DNA of 44,286 nucleotides, from IMG/VR virus record IMGVR_UViG_3300022904_000001; one strand, 5' to 3'. The position numbers were made by a program, and so were the translations under genes. Every line of letters starts with the position of its first letter. Within the stretch, counting starts at the first letter, position 1. Under the pieces are notes generated by a model, which was given only the letters and a program-made list of their open reading frames with translations, had not been told where the DNA came from and made no database searches. Origin of the DNA: a virus. This document shows positions 1 to 44,286 of this stretch, in pieces.

Positions 1-127
1 CTGCAACGGCCAGGGCGGCATCAACACCGGCAACGTCTGACCTGACCACCCAGAAGGGCCCGGAGAGGATTCCTCTCCGGGCCCTTCTGGGCATCCCCTC
101 ACGCCTTCAACGCAAGCATGCCCTCCC
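1..127. repeat. 127-bp terminal overlap, exact copy of 44160..44286 (circular contig closure)
   Basis: Read end to end; both copies are identical. The length is typical of an assembler k-mer overlap. Unique genome length is therefore 44159 bp. Confidence 0.9.
49..91. terminator. Bidirectional intrinsic-terminator-like hairpin (21-bp perfect arms)
   Basis: Arms cccagaagggcccggagagga / t / tcctctccgggcccttctggg. Lies between the convergent 44065..44199(+) gene and the 99..1916(-) gene. Same element as 44208..44250. Confidence 0.75.
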
Positions 128-1916
128 GCCAGTGGTACAGCGCGCCCATGTCATACAGCCTGGCCTCCGTCTGGCCATACGGCTGGCCATCCGGTTTGGC
201 CAGCGGCTCCGGGAAGCCGGCCAGCGTGCTGGCCCGGCGCAGAGTGGCCAACGTGATGGCCATCGGCCCGTCCTGGCCAGGCAGATTGGCCAGCGCTTCG
301 GCCAGTGTGACCGCACTGGCCAGCGCCGGCCGGGATTGGCCAGTGGCCACCGATGTCCAGGACTGGCCAAGGATCGGGCCAGTGGCCATGTCCAGGCCAG
401 AGACGATGGCCAGCGCTTCGGCCTCCGACAACCAGGGGACACGGAAGATCTCGAACTCGTCCGCTCTGGCCACTCCCCACACACCGCGCTCGCGCGACGT
501 GCAGGCCACGTAGTCCATCGTGTCCACCAACATCTTCCAGAGCTTGCGATCCCAGCGCGCGATGAAGCGGCCACCCTGGAAGCTCTCCCGGATGTCACCG
601 CCGTTGCCGCCGAAGATCGATGCGGACGCGCGCTGCGCCGCGACGATCACGTGCATCTTCAATTCGCGGCCCATGCACACGCTCTCCTGCATGGCCACGA
701 TGGCCGGCGACTGGACAGGCGGGTCCAGATCGGCCACCTCGAACGGTGCATCATCGGCCTGCGCCTGCTTGGCCGCGAGCATGATCTCTTTGCGCAGGCC
801 GCGCCAATACCTGATCAGCTTTTTGGCCTGGACGTTGGCCTCTTCGACCATGATGATCACGCGACGCTGGCCGACGAGCTCCTCCTCCGGCAGCTCGATG
901 CGTCGCTTGATCTCCTCGCCGATGGCCATCCACGTCTCATGCAGGTCGGCATCGCGGTACGCGTAGATCACTTGGTCTTTGCTGAGCTTGCCGCCACCCG
1001 CCCATCGCCAGTGCGAGAAGCGCTTCGGATCCAGGATGATTCCGCCGTCACCCTTCTCGATCCGCTGCACCATGAAGACGCGGGCAAGTACCGTCTTGCC
1101 GGTGCCCGCGGCGCCGGACATGAGGAAGTGGGGAGAGTCTTCGACCATGCTGACCTTGACGAGGTGGCCTTGCGCCTTGCGTCCGACGATCACCTCGTCA
1201 TCCGCACATTCCTCGATGGCCTTACGCAGGCTGGCGAAGGTCACCTCCCCGGGCGGCAGCGGCGCGGAGGAGAGGTCGACGCAGACGTTCGTGCCTGCCT
1301 CGCTCCACTCCCCGCGTACGGGCGCGGGGATGCCGAGCCGAGCGCCGACGTTCTCGGTGAGGGCTGCCTTGGATCGCGGATTCAGGGGCACGTGCACGGG
1401 CAGATGCACGCGCACTGTGCCTTGCGCTTCCTTGCCCCAGTTGGGAGGAAGCTCGATCGCCTCGCGGCCGGCGCGTTTGGTGTAGCGGCCACCGGTGAGC
1501 GAGAACAGCACGCGCGCCGCGGGATCGACGTACTCGCGGTTCAGCCGGCCGCGGCGCAGCAGATGAACAAATGATCTGGCAACCCACCACATCGCAATCA
1601 GCCAGGTAGCAAGAGCCCAGGCGACGGCGATCTTCCAGCCGGCCAGAGGCAGCAGGGCCAGCGGCACGGTCAGGGCAGCGTGCCGGCGCGCGAGACGCTG
1701 CCAGATCGGACCGCTCAGCGTCATGTACGGGCGAGCGCGGTAGTCGATCGTGGCGCGGTGCAGGAAGGTGGCGTTATCGCCGGGGCCGCGGAGCTGCTGG
1801 CCGGTGATGAGGTACCGGCCGAGGATGCGCAGCGGGAGCGGGACACGCGCGTGCTCGCCACGCCAGGAGATCAGTGGGGCCGAATTTTGAGGCACCTGAT
1901 CGACTCTAGCGCACAT
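99..1916 (-). CDS. FtsK/SpoIIIE-family DNA translocase, TraB-like architecture
   Basis: 605-aa ORF. N-terminal hydrophobic helices (LTVPLALLPLAGWKIAVAWALATWLIAMWWVA), Walker A GAAGTGKT, Walker B-like VIIMVEEAN, and a low-complexity C-terminal tail. Confidence 0.85.
   Translation of the reverse strand: MCARVDQVPQNSAPLISWRGEHARVPLPLRILGRYLITGQQLRGPGDNATFLHRATIDYRARPYMTLSGPIWQRLARRHAALTVPLALLPLAGWKIAVAWALATWLIAMWWVARSFVHLLRRGRLNREYVDPAARVLFSLTGGRYTKRAGREAIELPPNWGKEAQGTVRVHLPVHVPLNPRSKAALTENVGARLGIPAPVRGEWSEAGTNVCVDLSSAPLPPGEVTFASLRKAIEECADDEVIVGRKAQGHLVKVSMVEDSPHFLMSGAAGTGKTVLARVFMVQRIEKGDGGIILDPKRFSHWRWAGGGKLSKDQVIYAYRDADLHETWMAIGEEIKRRIELPEEELVGQRRVIIMVEEANVQAKKLIRYWRGLRKEIMLAAKQAQADDAPFEVADLDPPVQSPAIVAMQESVCMGRELKMHVIVAAQRASASIFGGNGGDIRESFQGGRFIARWDRKLWKMLVDTMDYVACTSRERGVWGVARADEFEIFRVPWLSEAEALAIVSGLDMATGPILGQSWTSVATGQSRPALASAVTLAEALANLPGQDGPMAITLATLRRASTLAGFPEPLAKPDGQPYGQTEARLYDMGALYHWREGMLALKA
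172..472. repeat. TGGCCA hexamer array 1 (14 copies in 301 bp) inside the 3' end of the translocase gene
   Basis: Copies start at 172,184,197,245,257,274,287,317,337,344,364,383,407,467. There are also several GGCCAG near-copies. The 17-mer tggccagcgcttcggcc is duplicated at 287 and 407. Confidence 0.9.
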
Positions 1917-2342: not shown

Positions 2343-2346
2343 TTCG

Positions 2347-3611: not shown

Positions 3612-3633
3612 CGATCGATTGGGATTAGACGTA

Positions 3634-3677: not shown

Positions 3678-3712
3678 CGTGTCGGTCACCACGCCAACGT
3701 GCGCAGCGTAGC

Positions 3713-18117: not shown

Positions 18118-19476
18118 CTAGGAGCGCGTCTGGAGCTGCACGAACGGGCTCAGCGTCGGACCGTTGTTGGCCGGCGTGATGGCGTTCAGGATCGCGGGCC
18201 GGCCGTCGTTGCGCTGGATCGCGCGCAGCGTGGTCTGGTCCGAGGTGAACTTGACGTGCGCGGAGGTCTCGATCGAGAGTTCCTCGCGGTCGCCGATGTA
18301 GTAGAAGCCGAGGTCCACGAGGTTGACGTCACCCTTCGTGCCGAGCACGGCGGGTGCCTTCTCGCTCATGATCACCGGAAGACCGAGGAGCGTGAGCTGC
18401 GGCCGGTTGTGCGCGTCCATCAGCCAGACGGCCGAACCGCCGGTGCCGACGTTGAGCGCCATCGTGGCGAGTTCGGTGAAGGCGTCGGGGGTGACGATCC
18501 AGACGGCACGCGCGAGCGACTGCGGCAGCATCCGCGCGTACATGTCGATCGCGTTTTCCCAGATGAACGAGGCCGCGGGCTGACCGGAGCGCTTGTTGAT
18601 CACGGTCAGGGCCGGGTTGTTCGCGTTCAGTACGCCGAGCGGCTCGCCGGCGCCGGTGCCGCGCAGGTAGTCCCAATCCTCGTACCAGCCGAACGCCGGG
18701 GGCAGGGCCTGGCGCAACCAGGCGAGCAGGGCACCACCGGTGTCCTTGATCGTCTCGTTCGTGAGGTAGGCCAGCGCGGTTTGCTTCGTGGCGTCGAGCT
18801 TGATCCGGCCGAACTTCGCCTGCGACTCGACGAACTCTTCGCCCTCCTCGGTGCGATAGACGACGATGCCGCCGAAGACCGAGGAGACGTTCGAGGTCGC
18901 GTCCACCGTGGGGAAGCTGAGCGTGTTCGTGCCCATGGGGATGACCACGGCGCGCGGCCGGACGATGGCCGTCTCCAGCGAGAGCGAGACGATCTCGGTG
19001 CGGAACTCCTCCGGGACGAGGAAGCCGCCGTCGGACGGCACCTTCTCCTGGTAGGCGTTCAGGACGGCGAGCTTCTCGTCCAGCGTCTTGCCGTTGGCCA
19101 GGCGCGCGTTACCTTCCAGGCGCCGGTGCCAGATCGTTTGGACGAACTCGCCCATGTCGTCGAACTTGCCGTTCAGGCCGGCGCCCTTGGCCTGCCGGTT
19201 GCCCTGCGAACGTGCGCCGAGAGCCAGCCGCGCGTTCTTGATCTCGGCGTTGCCGGCGCCGCGCTCCTTCAGCATCTCCGTCAGGGACGCCTGCATCTCC
19301 GACTGGATCATCTTCTGGATCTCGGCAGTGTCCGAGGTCTGCGCCTGCACGTAGGCGTTCAGGTTGTTCTTGAACGTGCCGTCGTTCATGGCGTCGGCGT
19401 ACTTCTGCGGCGTGTCGAGTCCGTTGATGAACTCTTCCCACTCCGCCGAAGTCTTCGCGAGCACGGGTGCGGTCAT
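18118..19476 (-). CDS. major capsid protein, HK97 fold family (452 aa)
   Basis: The ATG at 19476 forms an ATGA overlap with the protease stop. Contains ..VPSDGGFLVPEEF..IVRPRA..LSFPT... Position is directly after the prohead protease. Confidence 0.85.
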   Translation of the reverse strand: MTAPVLAKTSAEWEEFINGLDTPQKYADAMNDGTFKNNLNAYVQAQTSDTAEIQKMIQSEMQASLTEMLKERGAGNAEIKNARLALGARSQGNRQAKGAGLNGKFDDMGEFVQTIWHRRLEGNARLANGKTLDEKLAVLNAYQEKVPSDGGFLVPEEFRTEIVSLSLETAIVRPRAVVIPMGTNTLSFPTVDATSNVSSVFGGIVVYRTEEGEEFVESQAKFGRIKLDATKQTALAYLTNETIKDTGGALLAWLRQALPPAFGWYEDWDYLRGTGAGEPLGVLNANNPALTVINKRSGQPAASFIWENAIDMYARMLPQSLARAVWIVTPDAFTELATMALNVGTGGSAVWLMDAHNRPQLTLLGLPVIMSEKAPAVLGTKGDVNLVDLGFYYIGDREELSIETSAHVKFTSDQTTLRAIQRNDGRPAILNAITPANNGPTLSPFVQLQTRS

Positions 19477-20303
19477 GCGAAGAGTCCTTTCATCGACTCG
19501 AATACCTTGCTGTGATCCCACGGGAATTCGGGGGATTCGTCCTTGACCTCGGGGACGCGGTGCGCGTTGACGAAAGCGCGAGCGCGATCACTGAGCGCAT
19601 GATCCCACCCGGCGAGCCGCGCGGCTACCTCTTCGTCCTCGTCGGCCTCCTCGCCCTTCGTGAGCTGCACGAGTTCGTGGACGAGGCCGGCTTCCATGGC
19701 CTCCTGGCCGGTGTACCAGAAGCCGTCCTCGCCGTTCTCGGTCATCTTGGCGCGCCAGAATGCGGGATCCTCGCCGGCACTCTCCGCGTACATGTCGGCG
19801 ATGTTGTCGGACACCTTGTCCAGCAGATCGGCTGCATCGCGGTGCGTGTTGCCGTTGCCGTAGGTGAACGTCATCGCATCGTGGATCATGACGAACCCGT
19901 TGCGCGCGGCGTGGATCCGGTCGCCGGCCAGCATGATGAACGAGGCCGCGGAAGCGGCAAGGCCGTCCACGTAGACACTGACGATGCCGGAGTGACGCGC
20001 GAGCAGGGTGTGGATCGCGATGCCCTGGAAGACGTCACCGCCGCCGGAGTTGATCCGTACGTTGACCGGGCCGGGGCCGGCCTCCTTCAGCGCCGCCGCG
20101 ACGTCGGACGCGGTGATGCCGTCCATCCACATACTGGCTCCGATCGAGCCGTAGATCATAATCTCGGCCGGTACCTGCGCGCTGACGCGCTCGTGCACGG
20201 CCAGGCCGGGCACGTCGTCGATGCTGCGCTGGACGCTCGCGCGCATGGCGAAGTCGACGGCCGGCTGTAGGCCGGTGAGAATCTCGCGGCGCCGCTTGTT
20301 CAT
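19473..20303 (-). CDS. ClpP-like (S14) prohead/capsid maturation protease
   Basis: IMIYGSIG...VRINSGGGDVFQGIAIHTLL...VDGLAASAASFIMLAGD... Confidence 0.8.
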   Translation of the reverse strand: MNKRRREILTGLQPAVDFAMRASVQRSIDDVPGLAVHERVSAQVPAEIMIYGSIGASMWMDGITASDVAAALKEAGPGPVNVRINSGGGDVFQGIAIHTLLARHSGIVSVYVDGLAASAASFIMLAGDRIHAARNGFVMIHDAMTFTYGNGNTHRDAADLLDKVSDNIADMYAESAGEDPAFWRAKMTENGEDGFWYTGQEAMEAGLVHELVQLTKGEEADEDEEVAARLAGWDHALSDRARAFVNAHRVPEVKDESPEFPWDHSKVFESMKGLFA

Positions 20304-21281: not shown

Positions 21282-21448
21282 GAGATCACCCGACCCTGAC
21301 GCAGGAGGTTGTGCACCGTGCGCCGGCCAGGCGCGAGCGGCACGAACTCCGCGTGCTCGCCGTCGCGCGGGTGCCGCCCGCCGCACAGCGGGCAGTTGAT
21401 CATCACCGGCTGAATGATGTTCGGCTCGGTGGACTCGCGCTCAGGCAT
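21278..21448 (-). CDS. micro-protein (56 aa) with CPLC motif
   Basis: The ATG at 21448 overlaps the portal stop by 8 nt. Confidence 0.5.
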   Translation of the reverse strand: MPERESTEPNIIQPVMINCPLCGGRHPRDGEHAEFVPLAPGRRTVHNLLRQGRVIS

Positions 21449-22724
21449 CGTCGGCTCCTGGCTCACCGGGCACACCCCCTGCCGGCACCGTGACGATCTT
21501 CGGTTCGGGCTTCGGCGCCATCTTCAGCCGCGGGATGCCGACGAAGTCGGCAGCCTCGTCGGGATCAGCGCCCGCGTCCACCAGCGTCTTCCACGCGGTG
21601 GTCTTCGTGGTCATGGTCGCGTTGTCGGACTCCTGGTCCGGCGGCACCGGCGACTCGTAGTCGAACTCCACGGGGATCTTCGACGCCGCGAGGCCGGGGT
21701 AGAACTGTGGCAGGAGGTCGAAGTTGACCGCGGCCTTCAGCCGGTCGAGGCGGGGCACGGTCAGCGTTTCGGCCATGAGCGCCAGTGATGCGGTAGCGGT
21801 CGCGCGGTTGACATCGTCCACGTCACCGAGGCCGAACTTCGGGAAGCCGTACGCGTCGAGGATGGACTGCTTCGTCCAGCCGCGGGTCTCCACGAACTGC
21901 ATGTCCTTCTGGGTGTAGGTGAGCGGCACGAACTTCGCGTTTTCAAGCACGGCCACGCGGCCGGCGTTCGCGATGCCCTTGTGCTGCTGCTCCCAGCGTT
22001 CGACCATTTCGTCGAACTCGGTATCGGTGAGCTTGGTCGGGACTTCCACGATGCCGCCCGGGGAGGCGGAGTTGCGGAAGAAGTTGGCTGCCCACTGGCC
22101 TTGCATCTGGTCCTGGTTGAGGTCGGTACTCAGCGAGGGGATGGGCGACTCGCCGCGGTAGATGTCCAGCGGCGCCGGGGTGCGGACCATGATCACATCT
22201 TCACGGCGCAGCGGCACTTTCTCGCCGTCGGGCGCGGTGTAGATATAGCCGGCGATGAACTCGGCGTTGCTCTCGACGGCGCTCATCCGGTCCGGGCGCA
22301 CGGGCCACATCTCGATCGGGGTGCCGCCGGTGAGCCGGCTACGCACGAGTACCCACCAGGCCTCGCCGGCGAGGTCGAGGTGCTGCTGGCCGATCTCGCG
22401 GAACTCCTGACCGGGCATGAACGCGTTCGGCTGTGACCAGACCATGAGCGCGGCGTGGCGGGTGATCTCGGTGCGGTCTTCGGCGAGGCCGGACGGCGCC
22501 TTCTGCCAGAGCTTCCATTCCACGCGCGAGGTCATGGAGGCGAGTTTGCTGACGACCCCGTGCAGGGTGCCGATCTCGGAGTACATGCTGAGCTGCTCGG
22601 CGCGACCGCGGGCGCCGCGGGAGGTGCCGATGCCGACGCTCATGAGTCCGGAGCGCCAGCGCGAGATGTAGGGGACGGGCGGAGCTTCGTTGGCGATACC
22701 GCCAAGCAGGCTCCGCAGGCTCAT
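21441..22724 (-). CDS. portal protein, HK97 family (427 aa)
   Basis: Start MSLRSLLGG (ATGA overlap with 22721). Contains ..AANFFRNSASPGGIVEVP..WEQQHKG..GRVAVLENAKF.. Confidence 0.85.
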   Translation of the reverse strand: MSLRSLLGGIANEAPPVPYISRWRSGLMSVGIGTSRGARGRAEQLSMYSEIGTLHGVVSKLASMTSRVEWKLWQKAPSGLAEDRTEITRHAALMVWSQPNAFMPGQEFREIGQQHLDLAGEAWWVLVRSRLTGGTPIEMWPVRPDRMSAVESNAEFIAGYIYTAPDGEKVPLRREDVIMVRTPAPLDIYRGESPIPSLSTDLNQDQMQGQWAANFFRNSASPGGIVEVPTKLTDTEFDEMVERWEQQHKGIANAGRVAVLENAKFVPLTYTQKDMQFVETRGWTKQSILDAYGFPKFGLGDVDDVNRATATASLALMAETLTVPRLDRLKAAVNFDLLPQFYPGLAASKIPVEFDYESPVPPDQESDNATMTTKTTAWKTLVDAGADPDEAADFVGIPRLKMAPKPEPKIVTVPAGGVPGEPGADDA

Positions 22725-23005
22725 CGACGTCTCGCTTCCAGGAAGAACAGGGCGAGTCCGGCCATGGCCCACCCCGCGATGGCGCTCAGCATAGTCGCAG
22801 CGATCACGAAAGCGGAGCATCCGGCTAGCACGAGCGTGTGACGCGTGGCAAAGGTTGTCAGGACAAGTAGAAGCCGGTGGATGGGCGCGAGGTTGACCCG
22901 CTTCACCCAGCGCCAGAGCAGGCGCACGGCGCGCCGCTTCGTGCGCGGCACCTGCATGGACTGATCCCGTGCGGCGAGGAGGTCGAAGAGGGTGGTTGTG
23001 GTCAT
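22721..23005 (-). CDS. membrane protein (94 aa)
   Basis: Two hydrophobic helices. ATGA overlaps. Confidence 0.6.
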   Translation of the reverse strand: MTTTTLFDLLAARDQSMQVPRTKRRAVRLLWRWVKRVNLAPIHRLLLVLTTFATRHTLVLAGCSAFVIAATMLSAIAGWAMAGLALFFLEARRR

Positions 23006-23184
23006 GCTTCCTCAAGCCCGGGAGTCCAGACCTCACTGCCTTCAGGGACATCCTTTGCGTGACGCTCGTTGGGCAGCACGCTGCCCGTGGCATGGTTGTA
23101 ATCGCACCTCGGGCAGACGAGGATCCCGCCGGGGAACAGGCCACGGCGCCTGCCACAGCAGCACGACACGGTGAACATCTTCAC
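23002..23184 (-). CDS. Cys-rich small protein (60 aa)
   Basis: SCCCG...VCPRCDYNH. ATGA overlaps. Confidence 0.5.
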   Translation of the reverse strand: MKMFTVSCCCGRRRGLFPGGILVCPRCDYNHATGSVLPNERHAKDVPEGSEVWTPGLEEA

Positions 23185-23660: not shown

Positions 23661-25028
23661 TCAACTCTTCATGAACCGCACGCGCGGGCGCGGCTGGACG
23701 TCGATCTCCATCAGCGCATAGCGCATCTGGTCCATGCCATCGTCCTCGTCCTTCATGGGCTCGTCCTTGCCCTTGTCGTTCCAGACGTAGCCGGGAATCT
23801 CCGCGACCGTGGAGGTCGGCTTCTTGGCTTCCTCCGCTTCGAGGTCGCGCACGATCCCGGCGTCGCGGAAGAACTTCAGGCGCGCACGGCCGCGGGCGTC
23901 GGGGCGGAAGCGTGAGGCTGTGACCTGAAGGCCATCCTTCACGCTCTTGTTCGCCGGCCGGGTGGGCTGGCCGATGTGGCGTTCAAGTGTGGCCCGGTCC
24001 TCAGCATCGTGATCGCAGATGATGATGGATGGGCGCTTGGCCTGCCAGCCGGTGACCGGCTCGCCATCGTACGGCAGGATGTGCCCGGTCTCCGGATCGA
24101 CCGGCCCCCAGCCGCAATGCGCACGGATCATGCGCGCGTGGTCCTCCACGAGGACTTTCGTCTTGTGGATCTCGTTGACCAGGATCGCCTCACCGTCTGG
24201 GGCGACCGCCCAATCTCCCCAGACGAACGGGTGCACGAATCCGAAGTCCACACTCCAGATGCGGCGCCAGTCCTCGGGGATCTCGAACCGGTCGACCACG
24301 TGCAGCGCCGGGTTGAAGTCTTCGTAGATGACACCTTCGGCTGCTGCCCAGATGCCCTTGCGCAGGCGCAGGTAGCGCACGCCGGTGAGCGAGTCGAGCT
24401 TCTCCATGTAGTTGCGGCCGGCCTCGGTCGCGGTGCCGTCCTCGTTGAAATACCGCGGGTTGTCCTCGTGACGCGAGTGCAGCATGAGCGTCTTGCCAGC
24501 CTCGCAGCGCAGCTTCAGCCAGTGCGTGGGCTCCTGCGGATTGCAGTCCATGATGATCTGCGAGAAGGAGATGGCGCCGTTGCGCAGGCGGGACACGCAA
24601 GCTTCGAGATCCTCGACCTCGATCTCAGTGGCTTCCTGGATGTAGATCACGTCGTACTCGGTGGACATGACCTTCATCGGGTTGTCCATGCCGCCGATGG
24701 CGATGCGTGAACCGTTCGAGTAGCGGTAGCTCGGAGGCTCGCGGCGGTTGCCGCCGAAGAAGCTGACGGTGCCGTCCAGCAGCGCCTGCACGGCTACGTG
24801 CTTCTCGTACGTCTCGATGCCTGAGGTGGTGAGCGAGACGGCGGTCTTGCGCAGCATGAGCGCGCGCACGTTGGGCGTGAGCAGGCAGATGTAGTGCAGC
24901 TTCTCCAGCGCGGCGCGGCTCTTGCCGGTGCCGGCCGGGCCGGCGAGCAGTACTTCACCCCCGCGGTACCGCATGGCTTCTGCTGCGGCGCCCCGGGGGC
25001 GGAAGTGGTGGACGAGGGCGGTGGTCAC
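23661..25028 (-). CDS. terminase large subunit (455 aa)
   Basis: Walker A GPAGTGKS. Contains ..VIYIQEATE... A C-terminal nuclease-type region follows. GTG start overlaps the upstream stop (GTGA). Confidence 0.85.
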   Translation of the reverse strand: MTTALVHHFRPRGAAAEAMRYRGGEVLLAGPAGTGKSRAALEKLHYICLLTPNVRALMLRKTAVSLTTSGIETYEKHVAVQALLDGTVSFFGGNRREPPSYRYSNGSRIAIGGMDNPMKVMSTEYDVIYIQEATEIEVEDLEACVSRLRNGAISFSQIIMDCNPQEPTHWLKLRCEAGKTLMLHSRHEDNPRYFNEDGTATEAGRNYMEKLDSLTGVRYLRLRKGIWAAAEGVIYEDFNPALHVVDRFEIPEDWRRIWSVDFGFVHPFVWGDWAVAPDGEAILVNEIHKTKVLVEDHARMIRAHCGWGPVDPETGHILPYDGEPVTGWQAKRPSIIICDHDAEDRATLERHIGQPTRPANKSVKDGLQVTASRFRPDARGRARLKFFRDAGIVRDLEAEEAKKPTSTVAEIPGYVWNDKGKDEPMKDEDDGMDQMRYALMEIDVQPRPRVRFMKS

Positions 25029-25211: not shown

Positions 25212-25718
25212 CTACTGCAAGTCCTCGGCCGAGAAACCTTCGATGCGGTACGTCGTGGTCGTGTTCATGTCGCCGGTCACCTGCAAGCGCGTCGGGAGCT
25301 GGCCCATCTCCTCGGCGGCCTGCTTGAGCACCTGAGCAGCCGCGCGCACGTCCACCTCATGCACGATGACCTCGGTCGTCTCGCCGGTATCGTCCTCGAC
25401 CGTCTCGCGGATGATCTTGCCGTTCGGTGCCACCTTCGGCGTGGGCGTACGCGCTACCTCGAACAGCTCTTCCAGTGCGCGCAGGCGTTCCGCCTTCTGC
25501 GCGATCAGGATGCCGGCGAACTCGTTCTCCGCATCGGCGCGCAGCGCGTTGATGGCCTCGGCCTCGCGCTGCTTGAACTGCGTGATCGCGCCCTCGGTGA
25601 CGCCGTAGCGCTCAGCCAGCTCCTTCTGCGTGACGTTCTCCAGCGCCAGCGCGCGGATCAGGCCATTGCGCTTCAAGCCGCCGAGCTTGCTGCGGTCGCG
25701 CTTCGTGGCCCCGCTCAT
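25212..25718 (-). CDS. terminase small subunit with N-terminal HTH (168 aa)
   Basis: NVTQKELAERYGVTEGAITQFKQRE. Position is upstream of terL. Confidence 0.7.
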   Translation of the reverse strand: MSGATKRDRSKLGGLKRNGLIRALALENVTQKELAERYGVTEGAITQFKQREAEAINALRADAENEFAGILIAQKAERLRALEELFEVARTPTPKVAPNGKIIRETVEDDTGETTEVIVHEVDVRAAAQVLKQAAEEMGQLPTRLQVTGDMNTTTTYRIEGFSAEDLQ

Positions 25719-28245: not shown

Positions 28246-28262
28246 AGCTCAACTATAGCAGA
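28246..28262 (-). promoter_or_regulatory. Conserved promoter motif, leaderless (tctgcTATAGTtgagctATG)
   Basis: -10 is the reverse complement of 28252-28257. ATG at 28245. Confidence 0.6.
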
Positions 28263-28269
28263 CGGGCCG

Positions 28270-28550
28270 TAGATGTGCAGGATCGGCCAGGGGAGCCTGC
28301 ACATGATGTTTTCCCTGCTCAGGGGCCGTTTTTCGAGCAAGTGTGCAGGGTTGTGCAGGGTATTTCCCTACTCGGTTCTTACATTGAGAAAACCCCTTAC
28401 TCCCTGGAGCCCTTTTATATATACGTACTTTTACCTTGCACATCTTGCACAAGAGAGTAAATAAGGGGGGTGAGCTGCAAAAACGGGTGTGCAGGGTACC
28501 GATCGGTACCCTGCACACACCCTGCACCGCAGGCCAGACCCTGCACACCT
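28270..28550. promoter_or_regulatory. Origin-of-replication-like region: at least 8 TGTGCAGG(G) iterons, an AT-rich patch and a 32-bp perfect palindrome
   Basis: Iterons at 28275, 28296(rc), 28341, 28351, 28487-28518 (palindrome gtgtgcagggtaccga|tcggtaccctgcacac), 28520(rc) and 28539(rc). AT-rich segment cccttttatatatacgtacttttacc at about 28410-28436. No credible ORF. Confidence 0.6.
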
Positions 28551-28551
28551 C

Positions 28552-30888
28552 TCAAATGGCGTCTGACCCGATGCCGTGCAAGACGGTCACGAACTTCCCC
28601 TCACTGCGTGTCCGCTTTGAGGTGAGGCCGTCCACCTTCTGCCGAAGATCCCGACTAAAGATCTCTTTGGTAGTCGTGTCCCTTGTGCGGCCTTCGCCCT
28701 CGCACCAGTTCCGGTATTTGAGGTATAGGTGATCAAGGTCAATCGCCTGTTTCGGATCGACCGTGCACCAGTCCTCGATGAAGGCGCCGATCGGGTCCGC
28801 GAGCCGGCGCGTAGCCTCCGCCTCGCCGCGCCCGCTCTCAGGCTGAGTGAAGCGACCGCGCTCATCGAGCCGGTCGAGTCCGTCCAGGGCCCAGTTCAGG
28901 ATGCCGCTCAATTCCCCCATCAGCTTCTCGGTCAGGGCAGTGTCCTCGCGGCCGTAGAACGACTGCTTGAACGCGACGTAGAGCATGCGGTCAACCAAAG
29001 CGCCGGACCGGTCGGAGAAGGTGGGCGTGTCGTTGCTCATGAGCATGAAGCGCACCCCGAGGCGGCCCTTCCATGCGGCCTTGTTCTTGCGGTGAACCGT
29101 GACGTGGTCCTCGCCCGAGATCTCCAGCATCACCTGGACGGCATCACCGATATTGCGCGAGTGCCAGCGCACATCCGAAGCCACGGCCAATGCGGAGCCC
29201 ACGAACGGCTCAAGGCCGAAGGTGCCGCCGATAAGGCCGAGGTTGAGTCCGGAGACATTGTCCTTGCCCACCAAGGCCGTCAGGACACGGGCGATCGTGC
29301 CCTTGCCGGAACGCTTCTTGCCGATCAGGGCAGCCATCTTCTGCTGATCCGTGCGGCCGCTCAGGACGTACCCGAACCACTCTCCGAGGAAGTCCTGCGC
29401 CTGGCCGTCGTCCGGGAGCACCTGATCAAGGAAGCCCTGCCAGTTCGGGCACCGTGCATCAGGGTTGTAGTCGAACGGCAGGCTGAACAGATTGAAGCGG
29501 CGCGGCGTGTGCGCCAGCAACTCCCGCCGGACCACGACACCGTTGGCCGCGGCCAGGGCTCGATCCTCCTCGCCGAGATGCTGCAACTCCGCCACGGCGA
29601 GCGCATCCATGACGTTCGCGATCTTCTGCTTCGTGGGAGCCCACGGGTTACGCTCCGGCGCATCCCCCGCCTTCTTGGCCGCGGTCAGGTAAACGGCGTC
29701 GCCGGTCTGCTGATACAGCCAGCGCCGGACGATCGGGTCCGGCTCCACCTCCCAGTGCGCGCCTGTCCACCGATAGAAATCGTCCTGCCACCACATCAGG
29801 TGCGGCACACCGTCACTAGCAGGGATCAGCGTCTTCAGTGCACGCGCGACCTTGAGCGGTTGCCCTGGGGGCGCGAGGATCGCCAGGCCGGGAGTCTCGT
29901 CCGCCTGCAACCGGGCAGGCTCGACGATCTCGGCCATCCACTGGCCCTGCCGTTCGGCATCCGCACGCGACCGCTCGATCGTGCTCAGCGTGTCCTCGTC
30001 GAGGACGTCCCAGCCTTCCGCCGGCCAGCGCTCGCGCCCGAGTCGCGACACCTCGGCCCGGACGTCACCGGCCTCGATCACCGCGCTGTAGTGCCAGCTC
30101 TCGAACGCCAGGTCCCGGACAGCGTTATTGCGGTTGCCCTGGACGAACTTCTCACCGAAGCGCGCGCAGGCGCGCCGCCATGCGTCTCGGACTTGCTCCT
30201 CGGTCATCAGGTGATCCGAGACGGCATCGTCGAAGAGGTCATCGTCGACCGCGACCGCGGGCATCTTCAGCGAGCGCAGGAACGCGACCCATTCCGCGGG
30301 GAGCTGGGGGACCTCCTGTGTGGCGACGGGGACCTTGCACCGCTCGCCGGCCTCGTTGTACCAGAGGTACTCGTTGCCGCTCGGGTGGATGCTCGGTGCC
30401 ACGATCGCGTACCGGTGCCCGTAGTGGAGTAGATCGAGCTTGTCTCCGTAGCGCTCGCGGAGAACGCCCTCGATCCGGGAAAGATCAAGATCGGTAGGAA
30501 TGCGGTAGAAACGGTGCCGGCGTGCGCTGTCCGCGCCGTGACTGGTGGAGTAGGGCCCCGCCGGCAGGGCTACGCCCACCTGCTGCTCCACCTGGCCGAG
30601 GACGTCGGCTCCCTCCAACCCGTCGATATCGAACGCGATAAGGAACTTCGGTAGTCGAATCGCGATGTTGAGGTTTCCGCGCTGGCCGGACCAGACGGTG
30701 AGCTGATCGTGACCGACCTTCTTGCCCTCGCGACCGGTGTAGCCGGCCGGAACAGGCTTCTTCTGCTTCGGCGCGGTGCCGACCGGGATGGGATTTTCCC
30801 AGCCGCGCCGCCAATAGACCTGCGCTCCTCTGGCGTAAGGAGCGGCCAAACCACTACCACTGGTAGGATTCGTCAAGACAGTCTCCAT
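28552..30888 (-). CDS. bifunctional primase-polymerase (Prim-Pol) fused to a D5/P4-type SF3 helicase (778 aa)
   Basis: N-terminus ..IAFDIDG..STSHG..RHRFYRIP..YAIVAPSIHPSGNEYLW. C-terminal P-loop GKKRSGKGT within ..EWFGYVLSG.. Confidence 0.8.
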   Translation of the reverse strand: METVLTNPTSGSGLAAPYARGAQVYWRRGWENPIPVGTAPKQKKPVPAGYTGREGKKVGHDQLTVWSGQRGNLNIAIRLPKFLIAFDIDGLEGADVLGQVEQQVGVALPAGPYSTSHGADSARRHRFYRIPTDLDLSRIEGVLRERYGDKLDLLHYGHRYAIVAPSIHPSGNEYLWYNEAGERCKVPVATQEVPQLPAEWVAFLRSLKMPAVAVDDDLFDDAVSDHLMTEEQVRDAWRRACARFGEKFVQGNRNNAVRDLAFESWHYSAVIEAGDVRAEVSRLGRERWPAEGWDVLDEDTLSTIERSRADAERQGQWMAEIVEPARLQADETPGLAILAPPGQPLKVARALKTLIPASDGVPHLMWWQDDFYRWTGAHWEVEPDPIVRRWLYQQTGDAVYLTAAKKAGDAPERNPWAPTKQKIANVMDALAVAELQHLGEEDRALAAANGVVVRRELLAHTPRRFNLFSLPFDYNPDARCPNWQGFLDQVLPDDGQAQDFLGEWFGYVLSGRTDQQKMAALIGKKRSGKGTIARVLTALVGKDNVSGLNLGLIGGTFGLEPFVGSALAVASDVRWHSRNIGDAVQVMLEISGEDHVTVHRKNKAAWKGRLGVRFMLMSNDTPTFSDRSGALVDRMLYVAFKQSFYGREDTALTEKLMGELSGILNWALDGLDRLDERGRFTQPESGRGEAEATRRLADPIGAFIEDWCTVDPKQAIDLDHLYLKYRNWCEGEGRTRDTTTKEIFSRDLRQKVDGLTSKRTRSEGKFVTVLHGIGSDAI

Positions 30889-40221: not shown

Positions 40222-40428
40222 ATGAGTAGCTACCAGGAGATCGAGCGTCACTCGCTCGGCATCGGCACGGAAGCGCTCTATGTGGCAGACGAGACGAATC
40301 ATGCGCAGTGGATCTCGGACGACTTCGTCGAGAAGTTCGGCGGACAGGAGCCGGACATCCCGGTCATGATGGCTTGCGACACCTGCGGTGATCAGCACCA
40401 ATGGAGAAAGGTCTACGTGAAGGCATGA
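40222..40428 (+). CDS. hypothetical protein (68 aa) with C-terminal CDTCGD motif
   Basis: Internal ATG of ORF 40093..40428. Confidence 0.5.
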   Translation: MSSYQEIERHSLGIGTEALYVADETNHAQWISDDFVEKFGGQEPDIPVMMACDTCGDQHQWRKVYVKA

Positions 40429-41231
40429 GCCCACACTGGGAAGACAAGATCGAGTCGGCTCGCTGGGAGGCCGGTAAGCCCGTGCGCGCTATCCGCTCCC
40501 TGGCCGATCTGCGGCCGGGGGACATCATGTTCGGCCCTATCGGCGGCATCGTGCCCGGCCTGTTCCCGGTCGGCGCCGGTCAGGCGCTGCTGGGTGAGGT
40601 CTTCCGCTCCGGCGTCATGTCGTCCCGGCACGTCGGGGTGGTGGTGGAAGCGGCGGAGCGGCGAGGCGAGTCGCCGGCCGAGGCGGCATCCATGATTGTC
40701 CCCGATCTCCAGTGGGTGACCACGCGCGACGATCGACTGATCATGAAGGGTCCTCGCCTCGTCCAGGCCATGCCCCACGGCGCCGAAGAGATCGAGCTGA
40801 CTGAGGCAGCGCACTGGACGGACCGCCACGCGTACGTGCGCATCCCCGAGGACTACCCCGGGCAGGGCAGCGACGCCGCGGCCATCGCGCGCCTGTTCGT
40901 CTCGGAGCGGGTGCCGTACTCCTTCCTCTCCTACGCCGCGCTCATCGCCTGGAAGTGGGGGTGGAAGGCGGAGCGGCTGGAGCGGTGGATCGATCGGCGC
41001 CGGCCGACCGTTGCGCCCTTCCCCCGCCCCCCTTTCGCGCTCGCAGGGAAGACCGTAGGTGCGCAGCTCCCCTGCGAGGCCATCTGCTCCGTGCTCGCGG
41101 ATCAGGCGTGGTCGCTGGCCGGCAAACGGGTCATGGAGGGTGTGCCGCACCAGGCGGTGACGCCCGGCGCCATGGCCGCGCGGCTGTTCGCCATGCAGGG
41201 CATCGAGTGGGGTGGGAAGGGGTTTCTGTGA
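40425..41231 (+). CDS. permuted papain-fold (NlpC/P60 superfamily, YiiX/C92-like) hydrolase (268 aa)
   Basis: LRPGDIMFGP...SRHVGVVVEA...VPYSFLSY...EAICSVLADQAW. The His-before-Cys order matches the permuted family. Confidence 0.5.
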   Translation: MSPHWEDKIESARWEAGKPVRAIRSLADLRPGDIMFGPIGGIVPGLFPVGAGQALLGEVFRSGVMSSRHVGVVVEAAERRGESPAEAASMIVPDLQWVTTRDDRLIMKGPRLVQAMPHGAEEIELTEAAHWTDRHAYVRIPEDYPGQGSDAAAIARLFVSERVPYSFLSYAALIAWKWGWKAERLERWIDRRRPTVAPFPRPPFALAGKTVGAQLPCEAICSVLADQAWSLAGKRVMEGVPHQAVTPGAMAARLFAMQGIEWGGKGFL

Positions 41232-42177: not shown

Positions 42178-42390
42178 ATGGCAAAGCTGATGCTGATCGG
42201 CTCAGTCGCCCAGGTCGAGTTGACCAGCGACTCGCTCGAAGGTCAGGTATTCGCCACCTGCGTGATACATCCCGCCTTCAGGCGGGAGTACGGCGGACTC
42301 TGCTCCTGGGCAGCGCGCTATGACGACATGAACGACGCGACCGGGTACGCCGCGGATCACGCGGACACAGGAAGGCAGGATGCATCGTGA
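42178..42390 (+). CDS. hypothetical protein (70 aa)
   Basis: ORF track. The ATG directly follows the upstream TAG. Confidence 0.55.
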   Translation: MAKLMLIGSVAQVELTSDSLEGQVFATCVIHPAFRREYGGLCSWAARYDDMNDATGYAADHADTGRQDAS

Positions 42391-42611
42391 CCACGGTCTA
42401 CTTAGCGATCATCGCCCCCGACAACCAGGGGCCGACAGTCCTCGGCGTGTTCAGCACGCTCGAAGCGGCCCAAGCAGCACACCAGACGCCCGGCGAGTGG
42501 GAGTACTCCCGCGTGTATGGCCAGTGGTGGCAGTGCAACTACCCCAGTGGTGTCGGTCACAACGACAACGAGGTCCACCCGCTCGAACTGGACGAAAGGA
42601 CGCAACCGTGA
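42387..42611 (+). CDS. hypothetical protein (74 aa)
   Basis: ORF track. GTGA overlaps on both sides. Confidence 0.55.
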   Translation: MTTVYLAIIAPDNQGPTVLGVFSTLEAAQAAHQTPGEWEYSRVYGQWWQCNYPSGVGHNDNEVHPLELDERTQP

Positions 42612-43504
42612 GCACGCTCGGATCCCTCTGGACAGGCGCCGTCGCCTACGTCTCGCTCGGCGTGGGCGCCGGCCTGTCCATGGCTGGCAACCTGGCGGAC
42701 ACCTACCGCACCCGCGGCGCCGGCCAGGTGGACGCGCTGGACAAGATCCTCGCACTCGCCTGGCCGGCGCTGGTCATCCTGGCCATCGAGATGTTCGTGT
42801 CCGAGCGGTGGAAGCGCTCGACCATGTTCCAGATCTGGCGATGGACCGGCTGTCTGGCCATCGGCTCGATGGCCATGGTGGCCAGTTGGACACACCTGCA
42901 CGACCTGTTGGCCAGTCGTGGCCAGTTGGCCGTCGTGGCCATCCTCGGACCGCTGGCCATCGACGGCATGGCCATCATGGCCACCGGCCTGATTCTGTCC
43001 ACCCGTGGGCAGTCTGGCCAACTGGCCACGGCGCCGGCCAGTGCGCCTACGGTTGGCCAAGCGCTGGCCAACAAGGACATGGCCACGCTGGCCAACTGGC
43101 CAGCGGAGGTGGCCACGCTGGACGCGATCGTGCAGGCCGAAGCGCTCATCCGTGGCCAGGAGCTGGCCAAGCAGATGGCCAGTCCGCAGGAGCCGACGTT
43201 TGAGGCTGGCCAGTTGGCCGATGACCTGGACGCGTGGGAGTGCGGGGTGGATGCGGCGATTCATGACGCCGGCCAGGAGCTGGCCAGGCAGGCGGAGGCC
43301 GTGGCCAACGGGCACCTTGCCGAGGACCCGCCTGTGGTGCCCGCGGTGCCTCCGGCGGCGGCGCTGCTGATCCAGGAGTGCTTGGCCAAGCAGGATGCCA
43401 AGAGCGCTATCGATGCGCTGGTAGCTGCTGAGCACGGTGTCTCGCCGCGGCAGGCGAGGCGGTGGCGGACGGAGGTTGCGCGCACGCTCCCTCCTCTGCT
43501 ATAG
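42608..43504 (+). CDS. DUF2637-like polytopic membrane protein with low-complexity linker and C-terminal HTH-like end (298 aa)
   Basis: GTGA start. Four hydrophobic segments. ..ASWTHLHDLLA...LGPLAIDGMAIMATGLIL resembles the DUF2637 S-x-x-H...PL.vDG signature. C-terminus ..HGVSPRQARRWR.. Confidence 0.45.
   Translation: MSTLGSLWTGAVAYVSLGVGAGLSMAGNLADTYRTRGAGQVDALDKILALAWPALVILAIEMFVSERWKRSTMFQIWRWTGCLAIGSMAMVASWTHLHDLLASRGQLAVVAILGPLAIDGMAIMATGLILSTRGQSGQLATAPASAPTVGQALANKDMATLANWPAEVATLDAIVQAEALIRGQELAKQMASPQEPTFEAGQLADDLDAWECGVDAAIHDAGQELARQAEAVANGHLAEDPPVVPAVPPAAALLIQECLAKQDAKSAIDALVAAEHGVSPRQARRWRTEVARTLPPLL
42780..43388. repeat. TGGCCA hexamer array 2 (25 copies in 609 bp) inside the DUF2637-like gene
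   Basis: Copies start at 42780,42855,42870,42879,42909,42919,42936,42954,42969,42978,43015,43023,43054,43065,43080,43089,43097,43110,43153,43164,43176,43207,43281,43302,43383. Confidence 0.9.
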
Positions 43505-43516
43505 TAGAGATATAAG
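43495..43516 (+). promoter_or_regulatory. Conserved promoter motif, long form (tctgcTATAGTagagatataag), overlapping the stop of 42608..43504
   Basis: -10 at 43500-43505. Confidence 0.6.
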
Positions 43517-43536
43517 GAACGAGCGAGGGAGCGGAC

Positions 43537-43719
43537 ATGGCGGACCAGAAGTACCCCCACGACCTGACGATCAGCGAGCTGCGCAGCGACCTGGAGCGGG
43601 CGCAGACGGCACTCACGGAAGCGCTCGGCGCCGGCAACCGGACCATTGCTCACAACCAAGTGAACAGCATCATCGAGATCCAGCGGATGATCGAAGACCT
43701 TAGGGGCGAGAAGGCCTGA
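43537..43719 (+). CDS. hypothetical helical protein (60 aa)
   Basis: ORF track. GGGAG RBS. Confidence 0.55.
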   Translation: MADQKYPHDLTISELRSDLERAQTALTEALGAGNRTIAHNQVNSIIEIQRMIEDLRGEKA

Positions 43720-43740
43720 ACCTTAGGCTGCCAGGGAAAA

Positions 43741-43774
43741 CAAGGGGGTCCACGCTTAAGCGTGGACCCCCTTG
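43741..43774. terminator. Hairpin with 15-bp perfect arms and TTAA loop
   Basis: caagggggtccacgc-ttaa-gcgtggacccccttg. Confidence 0.7.
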
Positions 43775-43789
43775 TCGTGCCATGGTTCG

Positions 43790-43806
43790 TCTGCTATAGT
43801 AGACAC
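43790..43806 (+). promoter_or_regulatory. Conserved promoter motif, leaderless (tctgcTATAGTagacacATG)
   Basis: -10 at 43795-43800. ATG at 43807. Confidence 0.6.
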
Positions 43807-43998
43807 ATGATGAACAACGGAGACAGCGGCAGTCAGTATTCCGAGAAGGCGCTCAAGCGGCGCCAGCAGCAGGCCATCGCGCAGGACATGAAGCGGCGCG
43901 GAGGCAACCCCGTTACCGTGTCCGACCTGCGGCAGCGGCACAGCGTCGGCAACCGGCCGGGGACCGGCTTCCTGAGCACGCTCCTGCATCACGGCTAG
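43807..43998 (+). CDS. hypothetical basic protein (63 aa), leaderless
   Basis: Internal ATG (MMNNGDSGS...) of ORF 43762..43998. Confidence 0.55.
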   Translation: MMNNGDSGSQYSEKALKRRQQQAIAQDMKRRGGNPVTVSDLRQRHSVGNRPGTGFLSTLLHHG

Positions 43999-44008
43999 GT
44001 CTTCACTC

Positions 44009-44052
44009 CTGATTGTTGATCTGCTATACTAGAAGTAGCGATCAACGATCAG
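44009..44052 (+). promoter_or_regulatory. Promoter motif (ctgcTATACT) bracketed by a 13-bp inverted repeat (operator-like)
   Basis: ctgattgttgatc (44009-44021) and gatcaacgatcag (44040-44052), matching 12 of 13. -10 at 44025-44030. Confidence 0.5.
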
Positions 44053-44064
44053 CAGGAGGTCACC

Positions 44065-44199
44065 ATGCTCACCCGCTTCGTCCGCTTCGTCCTCAGCGCC
44101 TGGAAGGCCTGCGAGACCTGCAAGGGTTCCGGCCAGCACAACGGCAAGAAGTGCCCAGCCTGCAACGGCCAGGGCGGCATCAACACCGGCAACGTCTGA
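44065..44199 (+). CDS. 44-aa DnaJ-CR-type zinc-finger micro-protein (2x CxxCxGxG)
   Basis: MLTRFVRFVLSAWKACETCKGSGQHNGKKCPACNGQGGINTGNV. AGGAGG RBS. The 3' end is also present at 1..40. Confidence 0.5.
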   Translation: MLTRFVRFVLSAWKACETCKGSGQHNGKKCPACNGQGGINTGNV

Positions 44200-44286
44200 C
44201 CTGACCACCCAGAAGGGCCCGGAGAGGATTCCTCTCCGGGCCCTTCTGGGCATCCCCTCACGCCTTCAACGCAAGCATGCCCTCCC
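44160..44286. repeat. Second copy of the 127-bp closure overlap
   Basis: Identical to 1..127. Includes the terminator copy at 44208..44250. Confidence 0.9.

Follow-up and report, generated by a model that had tools for sequence, protein, structure and literature searches.

Gene-embedded hexamer arrays suggest a plasmid-derived Tra/clt-like module in a tailed phage

A stretch of 44,286 nt, IMG/VR virus record IMGVR_UViG_3300022904_000001 (hereafter the window), carries two dense arrays of the hexamer TGGCCA, one at the 3' end of a gene for an FtsK/Tra-family membrane translocase of double-stranded DNA (dsDNA) and the other inside a convergent gene for a DUF2637-family membrane protein with a C-terminal helix-turn-helix motif (the DUF2637-HTH protein). 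By analogy with the transfer systems of Streptomyces plasmids we propose, at roughly an even chance, that the two genes form a plasmid-derived Tra/clt-like module and that the arrays are its putative cis recognition locus. The proposal builds on the homology and fold of the pump, the synteny of plasmid genes for Tra and DUF2637 proteins, selection on the word at the DNA level, conservation of the arrays and switching of the word between lineages, which the following sections document. A first-pass annotation, made from the letters of the window, had suggested a translocase-plus-cis-site system of Tra/clt type, and the comparative evidence from fold, plasmid gene pairs and repeats supports that suggestion.

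The TGGCCA arrays and their rewriting among relatives

Positions 1-127 are identical to 44160-44286, which indicates a circular assembly of 44,159 bp with an arbitrary cut point, and because of this 127-bp end overlap the two arrays are neighbours. The window (GC content 65.7%) holds 55 copies of TGGCCA against 12.9 ± 3.6 in 100 dinucleotide shuffles (maximum 21), and 39 of them fall into the two arrays, 14 into array 1 and 25 into array 2 (Table 1), so both arrays reported by the first-pass annotation are real. The remaining 16 copies are at about chance level, neither enriched nor avoided. The gap between the arrays measures 942 bp (43389..44159 plus 1..171) rather than the 1.07 kb first given, and the annotation's own equivalence of position 172 with 44331 leads to the same figure. 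The arrays are not intergenic: both sit inside the coding sequence of the two convergent genes and not between them, array 1 within the last 375 nt of the translocase gene and array 2 across the conserved transmembrane-coding part and the variable linker of the DUF2637-HTH gene.

One explanation would deny the arrays any function at the DNA level and see in them a by-product of coding, produced by a Leu/Met/Val-Ala- and Gly-Gln-rich protein written in GC-rich codons or by a protein repeat. In translation the hexamer appears as xTG-GCC-Axx (Leu/Met/Val-Ala), T-GGC-CAx (Gly-Gln) and, in one case, TGG-CCA; the first of these spells L/M/V-A-x in preferred codons, pairs of this kind abound in the membrane-helix region, and the spacing of the sites has a 3-nt periodicity. 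When the proteins were kept fixed and each codon was redrawn from the genome's own usage (2000 resamples), however, the 14 sites of the translocase 3' end compared with 2.3 ± 1.3 expected, the 10 sites in the membrane-helix part of the DUF2637-HTH gene with 2.3, and the 15 sites in the remainder of that gene with 2.4, and in none of the three segments did a single resample reach the observed count. The same procedure gave 7.7 expected sites in 17 control genes, where 5 were observed. Moreover, the sites occupy two reading frames in array 1 and three in array 2, the word persists in DNA where the linker of the DUF2637-HTH protein is hypervariable and indel-rich among homologues, and substitutions in the proteins (A to D, Q to R) accompany changes of the motif. 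Because of the resampling counts, the several frames and the persistence of the word in the variable linker, an artefact of protein repeats or codon bias is excluded and the by-product explanation retains hardly any credence; as judged from the sequence, selection on TGGCCA acts at the DNA level. Helical phasing was also considered and rejected, as the spacing is irregular and carries the codon periodicity only, with no 10.5-bp signal.

Protein searches returned more than 160 homologues of each module protein, essentially all of them metagenomic and many on contigs of 41-46 kb, and scans of IMG/VR and JGI metagenomes yielded 38 non-redundant loci that include a translocase 3' end. The translocase gene converges on the DUF2637-HTH gene in all loci with enough flanking DNA. 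Conservation of the arrays, by which the first-pass annotation had wanted its reading to be judged, was found in 24 of 27 diverged, non-redundant relatives, which keep both arrays (counted among loci whose downstream sequence extends for 1.5 kb or more). Distant phages also have arrays in both genes, but there the translocase array occupies the 5' part of its gene, which codes for the membrane helices; in one of them (L027), whose translocase is 27% identical, 60 copies of TGGCCA lie within 10.6 kb and the array stands at the 5' end. Three more of these distant loci (L082, L083 and L084) encode short translocases of about 500 aa. In another locus (L002) each end of the translocase gene carries an array, the one at the 5' end being a third TGGCCA array of 11 sites in 130 bp (4296-4425).

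In 50,697 deposited phage genomes, the sole match of the translocase was a protein of Streptomyces phage Dagobah (27.7% identity), which has 309 aa, is without the membrane and C-terminal domains and is accompanied by no TGGCCA array; the DUF2637-HTH protein and, in a nucleotide search, the segment between the arrays matched none of these genomes. A scan of a genome collection gave one 1.1-kb fragment of a metagenome-assembled genome as its sole match. Dagobah (L075) carries a cluster of its own, CTTTGCA/TGCAAAG in 6-7 copies over 500 bp (22-520, within a terminal repeat of 1187 bp), unrelated to the TGGCCA arrays.

The word is rewritten between lineages. The closest relative (L001, translocase 79% identical) uses TGGACA/TGTCCA, with 28 copies in the array region against 1.7 expected, and five loci (L005, L033, L034, L082 and L083) use CGGACA/TGTCCG; several loci are mixed in motif class, and both arrays of one locus always belong to the same class. 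Pooled over the 27 loci, enrichment was 12-fold for TGGCCA, 6.5-fold for TGGACA, 4.7-fold for AGGACA and 3-fold for CGGACA, while NGG[G/T]CA hexamers were not enriched (0.5-0.9-fold); because only NGG[A/C]CA variants are enriched, we take GG[A/C]CA as the core of the family. TGGACA/TGTCCA stands in L001 at the position homologous to a window TGGCCA for 4 of the 14 sites of array 1 (P = 1e-3) and 6 of the 25 sites of array 2 (P = 2e-5), with about 0.5 expected per array. The proteins were recoded together with the motif, as in ALANL to ALDML, Leu-Ala to Leu-Asp and Tyr-Gly-Gln to Tyr-Gly-Arg. This behaviour fits individual functional sites that would be tracking a reader. Array 2 of L001 includes a 42-bp tandem repeat (8441-8600) of about four units, each of 14 aa and each with four copies of TGGACA/TGTCCA, which indicates that arrays are able to grow by tandem duplication.

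The two proteins and their plasmid relatives

The translocase consists of hydrophobic helices at aa ~69-141, a motor, a disordered linker and a C-terminal domain. The motor has a Walker A motif (GAAGTGKT, aa 268-275), a Walker B motif (IMVEE) and an AAQR motif, and residues G273, K274, E358, E359, Q428 and R429 are invariant across 36 homologues. Sequence profiles reach the P-loop only: Pfam FtsK_SpoIIIE remained sub-threshold for the window protein (15.8 bits) and reached E <= 0.01 in 19 of the 36 relatives. The AlphaFold (AF2) model (pLDDT 80), compared with the PDB by Foldseek, matched the coupling protein TcpA of pCW3 (6o1w, E = 3e-14), the FtsK motor bound to DNA (6t8g/2ius, E = 5e-12 to 1e-11) and EccC/EssC, and the profile of the motor aligned with pIJ101 Tra at an hhalign probability of 92%. 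By the modelled motor fold and the catalytic motifs, the assignment as an FtsK/SpoIIIE/TraB-type dsDNA translocase, already made in the first-pass annotation, is confirmed. Long helices are predicted at aa 69-92 and 94-141, with a hydropathy segment at aa 80-98, and the protein is predicted to be membrane-associated at its N-terminus.

FtsK and SpoIIIE read a short DNA word (KOPS and SRS) with a C-terminal winged-helix domain. The C-terminal domain of the phage translocase, about 70 residues long and conserved, is a candidate for such a reader, and a model of the fragment has pLDDT above 90 over fragment aa 40-110. Foldseek with the isolated domain gave no significant match (best E = 0.34); the top folds, all non-significant, were MerR-type DNA-binding domains (CarH-DNA, probability 0.82), and further such neighbours were the small domain of a viral DNA-packaging motor (7lw0/7lwr), RacA-DNA and an excisionase. 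The C-terminal pattern ...TL..LR.A...DP.FP.P....LY....L..W.RNR is common to the phage translocase and to Tra proteins of plasmids (pFRL6, pPR2 and an S. goshikiensis plasmid).

In the DUF2637-HTH protein, four hydrophobic helices can be made out by eye at the N-terminus (aa 1-135; a hydropathy scan flagged three segments), followed by a hypervariable linker (aa ~136-255) and a simple HTH, GVSPRQARRWR, at aa ~270-290. In the alignment of homologues, both the N-terminus and a C-terminal motif, ...GVSxR(T/Q)ARRWR, are conserved, and the middle is rich in indels; HTH_Tnp_1, HTH_23 and HTH_28 match the C-terminal motif weakly (E = 0.01-0.03). The earlier description of this protein as DUF2637-like is carried by the family rather than by the window protein's own score, which at 20.5 bits lies below the 22.8-bit gathering cut-off of PF10935; most homologues carry precomputed PF10935, the L027 homologue scores 23.7 bits, above the cut-off, and the proteins of plasmids pFRL6, pPR2 and SCP2* score 33-113 bits. 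Upstream of the gene lies a small conserved gene (42178-42390, + strand) ending in ...YAADHADTGRQDA, and a similar small gene stands directly upstream of the DUF2637-HTH gene in L001, L004 and L006; its product is possibly a third component of the module.

By sequence similarity, the nearest cellular relatives of the translocase are Tra proteins of actinomycete plasmids. A tblastn search found homologues in 48 such plasmids, 45 from Streptomyces and the others from Planobispora, Nocardiopsis and Pseudonocardia, about 28% identical over 63-80% of the translocase and annotated as Tra protein, FtsK, DUF87 or pRL2-11. Altogether 352 plasmids, including 331 of Streptomyces origin, carry DUF2637 genes; such a gene lies directly upstream of tra in pFRL6, pFRL3 and pPR2, and one lies near a GntR regulator gene in an SCP2* fragment. 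Like their phage counterparts, the adjacent plasmid DUF2637 genes encode a variable linker and a small C-terminal helical domain, although the plasmid pairs are co-oriented with DUF2637 upstream and the phage pair is convergent. An unbiased local k-mer scan of six plasmids revealed short-repeat arrays in four, at positions comparable to those of the phage arrays: GGACCCAG six times in a single orientation in the 3' part of tra in pFRL6, GACCGGAC seven times just downstream of tra in pPR2, CGGAACC 19 times in the S. goshikiensis plasmid, over the 3' half of a membrane-protein gene upstream of tra and the 5' end of tra itself, and a repeat cluster between the DUF2637 gene and tra in pFRL3. These repeats are 7-8-mers mostly in one orientation, whereas the phage word has 6 bp and is either a palindrome or found in both orientations. 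Segments of the window used as controls scored well below the plasmid arrays, except for one real cluster (CCTGCACA, described below). The DUF2637-associated plasmid arrays are, by their repeats and positions, candidate clt-like loci. In pFRL6 (L079, 4011-4500) a second cluster, CGTTGC/GCAACG in about 8 + 7 copies, occupies the gap between DUF2637 gene and tra. The SpdB protein of pIJ101 was considered as a DUF2637 member and rejected, since no DUF2637 match was found in it; against the phage DUF2637 profile, its hhalign probability was 0.3%.

The phage translocase resembles TraB of the Streptomyces TraB/clt systems (pSVH1, pIJ101, pJV1 and pWTY27), a membrane-anchored FtsK-family dsDNA pump with a C-terminal DNA-binding domain, the latter a candidate in the phage. 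The TraB pump is hexameric, and clt consists of short repeats at or near the tra 3' end, as array 1 does; pWTY27 TraA has hydrophobic helices at 68-90 and 102-124, comparable to those within aa 69-141 of the phage protein. Described clt loci comprise 5-9-bp repeats in 3-9 copies that adjoin or overlap the tra 3' end, and they are bound by the C-terminal winged helix (winged helix-turn-helix, wHTH) of TraB (PMC3583192, PMC4447253). Array 1 agrees with this picture of short repeats at or adjoining the tra 3' end, and the phage has a second array in the partner gene. Differences include the embedding of the phage arrays in two coding sequences, which departs from described clt loci, the carrier, a tailed phage here and a conjugative plasmid or actinomycete integrative and conjugative element (AICE) there, and the C-terminal domain, MerR/Xis-like in the phage model and with a weak, sub-threshold MarR_2 match in pIJ101 Tra.

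A site within a gene has a precedent in pIJ101, where SpdA2, a protein of the transfer region, binds a palindrome (sps) inside its own gene that is coded by a recurring amino-acid motif and can be removed by synonymous substitutions (PMC4170104). Both sps and the phage arrays lie in coding sequence, but sps is a 12-bp palindrome in 2-3 copies, against a hexamer in about 39, and SpdA2 is a small, soluble protein with a phenotype in segregational stability, not transfer, and no detected similarity to the phage proteins. FtsK with KOPS and SpoIIIE with SRS share with the phage pump an FtsK-family motor, as the fold match indicates. KOPS and SRS, however, are 8-bp, non-palindromic, chromosome-wide and strand-skewed, while the phage word is localised, palindromic or bidirectional and without polarity; with 39 of 55 sites in two local arrays, the phage system does not belong to this type. 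A KOPS-like polarity was rejected on the further ground that non-palindromic variants occur in both orientations within one array.

Compared with the known Tra/clt systems, what is new is the tailed-phage carrier, a denser, shorter, bidirectional and gene-embedded cis code, and a word rewritten between lineages. FtsK-like genes are reported, with no role assigned to them, in Streptomyces and Thermobifida phages (PMC4569894; bioRxiv 10.1101/2024.02.16.580700), and for the Spd-like (SpdB2) homologues of actinophages a part in the spread of phage DNA has been suggested (PMC4447253); none of these three reports describes repeat arrays with actinophage FtsK-like genes. In the literature searched we found no description of clt-like phage arrays or of this phage clade.

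The junction segment and the flanking genes

The segment between the arrays contains three micro-genes, and the earlier statement that they are separately promoted was borne out, each following a copy of the promoter-like 13-mer CTGCTATAGTAGA; so was the presence of two strong hairpins (18- and 21-bp stems), with transcription converging on the second. The 13-mer has 19 strand-matches genome-wide against 0.09 expected and occurs at about 13 sites, always oriented with the downstream gene, and it is probably the main promoter element of the phage; a promoter scan flagged 43772-43800 and 44002-44030. The translation of CTGCTATAGTAGA (LCYSR...) also appears at the starts of open reading frames (ORFs) in relatives. 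Micro-gene 3 has a sub-threshold DnaJ_CXXCXGXG match (E = 4e-6, 27.4 bits against a cut-off of 32.7 bits). The second hairpin marks the meeting point of the rightward genes and the leftward translocase gene and is probably a bidirectional terminator. Relatives have between the translocase and DUF2637-HTH genes 0-4 unrelated small genes, because of which we regard the junction content as accessory and the two array-bearing genes, not the junction segment itself, as the conserved unit.

By profile searches, the window is identified as a tailed phage with head, portal, terminase, tail and replication genes (Table 1); a ClpP-type protease, a tape measure protein, an N-acetylmuramoyl-L-alanine amidase and two helicases are also encoded, and a scan of 50 further ORFs found an endonuclease VII, an exonuclease and a major tail protein. 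The reported lack of integrase, repressor and partition genes holds for every window ORF scanned, none of which matched integrase, ParA/ParB, ParM/R, TubZ/R or repressor families, so a ParABS-type system was not recognised. Scans of the window for tRNAs and Rfam families gave no match. The phage is apparently a non-integrating actinophage. The 8-mer CCTGCACA forms a cluster at 28274-28547, directly beyond the 3' end of the primase-polymerase gene, with seven exact and about four one-mismatch copies in both orientations; the cluster adjoins the promoter-like 13-mer at 28249-28261 and is plausibly a replication-origin iteron set.

The protein described as a papain-fold wall hydrolase had no match in Pfam, NCBIfam or the PDB, although one homologue is named as an NlpC family hydrolase. 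Its inclusion in a Tra set is not supported, as homologues reside in ordinary integrated prophages of Actinoplanes ianthinogenes and A. philippinensis (L085, 10001-10777; L086, 10001-10666). These prophages encode a tyrosine integrase and an HTH_3 repressor close to the homologue but lack a Tra module, and the A. ianthinogenes homologue follows large unannotated, likely tail, genes. To judge by these homologues, the product is a general phage wall hydrolase and not a member of the Tra set. Sequence comparison hints that the phage clade infects Micromonosporaceae-like actinomycetes. Among the small proteins encoded in 1988-4281, hydropathy detected transmembrane-like segments in the products of 2438-2908, 3126-3611 and 3952-4281, in keeping with their description as membrane proteins; a Spd set, to which they had been likened, is unsupported, with no detectable Spd similarity. 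The gene at 2438-2908 (+ strand), divergent from the translocase gene, encodes a 156-aa protein with a C-terminal membrane helix and has a counterpart in L027 (3304-3762, - strand). A GIY-YIG reading of its N-terminus (PGVYLYRT...WGYAGKS), made by eye, was rejected, as profile, PDB and BLAST searches gave it no support.

Table 1. Features of the window, with positions counted from its first nucleotide
Feature	Position	Strand	Basis or remark
FtsK/Tra-family membrane dsDNA translocase, 605 aa	99..1916	-	AF2 model, Foldseek, homologues
Translocase C-terminal domain, aa 535-605	102..314	-	winged-helix/MerR-Xis-like model; candidate hexamer reader
Array 1, 14 TGGCCA	172..472	.	translocase gene 3' end, aa ~482-582 (motor end, linker, C-terminal domain)
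DUF2637-family membrane protein, 298 aa	42608..43504	+	PF10935 sub-threshold, homologues, alignment; second candidate reader
Array 2, 25 TGGCCA	42780..43388	.	inside DUF2637-HTH gene, residues 58-261 of 298 aa
Promoter-like 13-mer CTGCTATAGTAGA	43496..43508	+	extended -10, TGnTATAGT; upstream of micro-gene 1
Further junction copies of CTGCTATAGTAGA	43791-43803; 44021-44033		one before each of micro-genes 2 and 3
CTGCTATAGTAGA sites	2348, 25190, 28249, 33524, 33579, 38865, 41669, 41928, 41982, 43496, 43791, 44021
Micro-gene 1, 60 aa	43537..43719	+	GC content at third codon positions (GC3) = 0.87; no Pfam or PHROG match
Hairpin, perfect 18-bp stem	43740..43775	+	after micro-gene 1; -36.3 kcal/mol, z = -6.9
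Micro-gene 2, 63 aa	43807..43998	+	homologue in L006
Micro-gene 3, 44 aa, CxxC...CxxC zinc-ribbon-like	44065..44199	+	phrog_3931; homologue in L006
Hairpin, perfect 21-bp stem	44208..44250	.	z = -7.4 and -8.6 on the two strands
Terminal redundancy of assembly	44160..44286	.	identity with 1-127
Major head protein	18118-19521		profile search
Portal	21441-23156		profile search
Large terminase (TerL)	23661-25028		profile search
Small terminase (TerS), probable	25212-25718		profile search
Primase-polymerase	28552-30888	-	profile search
Wall hydrolase, putative	40401-41231		homologues 58-59% identical; no Pfam, NCBIfam or PDB sequence match

Readers of the word, rival explanations and significance

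If the gene pair is a plasmid-derived Tra/clt-like module, its roughly 39 hexamers (TGGCCA; family core GG[A/C]CA) would be the functional equivalent of the clt/TRS repeats of Streptomyces plasmids. Many sites of low information would permit multivalent binding to an oligomeric, membrane-bound machine through DNA-binding domains on flexible linkers, be it the translocase winged helix, the DUF2637 HTH or both; binding would single out the phage genome as substrate and deliver it to the pump in the membrane, which would use ATP to drive the double-stranded DNA of the phage through a membrane or septum. Most probably such transport would run from one hyphal compartment to another, or into adjacent cells or spore compartments, in an actinomycete host that forms a mycelium. 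We infer in this scheme both that a protein of the module binds the hexamer, and which one, and the direction and purpose of transport; the functions offered in the first-pass annotation, namely intramycelial spread, segregation or terminus processing, are likewise conjectural. The evidence on the reader is split between the translocase winged helix and the DUF2637 HTH. Analogy with TraB favours the translocase winged helix as the putative reader. In favour of the DUF2637 HTH, its protein is the more strongly conserved of the two where phages with very different translocases keep TGGCCA. The RRWL variant of the DUF2637 protein also accompanies all five CGGACA loci, which have two translocase types; against it stand the single DUF2637 clade that these loci share and a contrary locus, L084. 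A clean covariation of motif class with the recognition helices was sought and rejected: the translocase domain gave none, and that of the DUF2637 HTH is suggestive, confounded by phylogeny and broken by one counter-example.

Several observations weigh against the Tra/clt-like reading. The phage word has 6 bp (with a 5-bp core) as compared with 7-9 bp in clt, its copies number about 39 in two arrays rather than 3-9 in one locus, and it is palindromic or present in both orientations where clt consists of direct repeats. TraB systems have a GntR-type TraR/KorA regulator of kil-kor type, to which no window ORF scanned corresponds. The likeness of the translocase C-terminal domain to a winged helix is non-significant, and two of the six plasmids examined have no array above background. 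Neither candidate reader covaries cleanly with the motif class: in the translocase, the helices SLEGLRTAAKRP (L016, TGGCCA) and TLEGLRTAAKRP (L005, CGGACA) differ by a single residue, and L084 combines RRWL with TGGCCA, contrary to the pairing of RRWL with CGGACA. The same motif occurs in phages with very different translocases, which could point to a conserved host factor.

The strongest rival, though we think it improbable, is a membrane tether or centromere, in which the DUF2637-HTH protein would bind the arrays and anchor the DNA for replication, segregation or packaging, with no intercellular transport and with the translocase accessory or uninvolved in recognition. Precedents are the phi29 membrane protein p16.7, which carries a DNA-binding domain at its C-terminus and organises membrane-associated replication, and RacA, which has clusters of ram sites; RacA-DNA was also among the non-significant fold neighbours of the translocase C-terminal domain. 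The N-terminal domain of the DUF2637-HTH protein is 46% identical where the translocase is 27% identical, and TGGCCA persists with it; CGGACA arrays go with one DUF2637 clade but two translocase types, and in the translocase gene the array may lie at the 3' end, the 5' end or both. Part of this covariation is trivial, however, because a DUF2637 clade and its internal array are inherited together, and every relative retains an FtsK-family pump whose catalytic residues are invariant, which speaks for active transport of DNA. In addition, the homologous plasmid modules are transfer genes, and no ParA-like motor was found among the window ORFs scanned. We give still less weight to the view that the hexamers recruit or titrate a conserved host protein (nucleoid-associated, segregation or methylation-dependent) and that their location in these genes is incidental. 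An identical TGGCCA word in phages whose translocases are only 27% identical, and the failure of either phage DNA-binding domain to covary cleanly with the motif, would suit it, as would the fact that 6-bp palindromes like TGGCCA are typical targets of methyltransferases or restriction enzymes; but the arrays are confined to the gene pair in every relative, wherever the pair sits and whichever translocase end is involved, TGGCCA elsewhere in the window occurs at chance frequency, and a phage reader that co-evolves with its sites accounts better than a fixed host factor for the lineage-specific switches to [T/C]GGACA, which is not palindromic and occurs in both orientations. The Streptomyces DnaA box, TTGTCCACA, has TGTCCA at its core, but in a comparison by eye with the consensus sequences neither this box nor the WhiA motif GACAC fits the flanks: what borders the word in L001 (TGTCCAA, TGTCCAG), as well as in the window, mismatches the essential CACA end, and GACAC is found in only some [T/C]GGACA lineages, so both readings were rejected.

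Far less probable than these two is a role in packaging, with the clusters flanking a pac or cos site or protecting genome ends, in the manner of P1 pac or Chi-like sites. Two clusters of a palindromic hexamer do stand 0.94 kb apart around a convergent, terminator-rich junction, and P1 pac has TGATCA-type hexamers on both sides of the cut, inside a gene. Yet TerL and the probable TerS lie about 18 kb away, the content of the junction is not conserved, in several relatives it is the part of the translocase gene coding for the motor, and not an intergenic junction, that lies between the arrays, and the homologous plasmid modules carry arrays while packaging nothing. A replication origin or a set of terminus iterons seems equally remote. 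Dense short repeats inside genes are known from phage origins, for example in lambda O, and the arrays, which are dense and short too, flank the convergence of two transcription arms; the CCTGCACA cluster beside the primase-polymerase gene, however, looks more like an origin, no replication initiator adjoins the arrays, and the TGGCCA arrays travel with Tra/DUF2637 genes, not with replication genes.

Should the Tra/clt-like module work as proposed, it would offer a testable case of a tailed phage that uses conjugation machinery on its own genome, an idea so far mentioned only in passing, for Spd-like genes of actinophages, and it would help to explain why FtsK-like genes are common in actinophages. 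The boldest form of the proposal, that a widespread lytic clade infecting mycelial actinomycetes moves its naked dsDNA genome between hyphae, compartments or spores through a captured conjugation pump that reads about 40 self-marking hexamers in the pump's own genes, is speculative and in our estimate doubtful; if true, it would mean a virion-independent, conjugation-like spread of phage or entrapment in spores. For plasmid biology, a DUF2637 gene adjoins tra in several actinomycete plasmids, with candidate clt-like arrays inside or beside these genes. Whatever their function, the arrays overlay protein-coding sequence with a cis-element code that is strong enough to impose a five-fold synonymous codon bias and Ala-to-Asp replacements inside conserved domains, and the lineage-specific rewriting of the word provides a natural system for the study of co-evolution between a reader and its sites.

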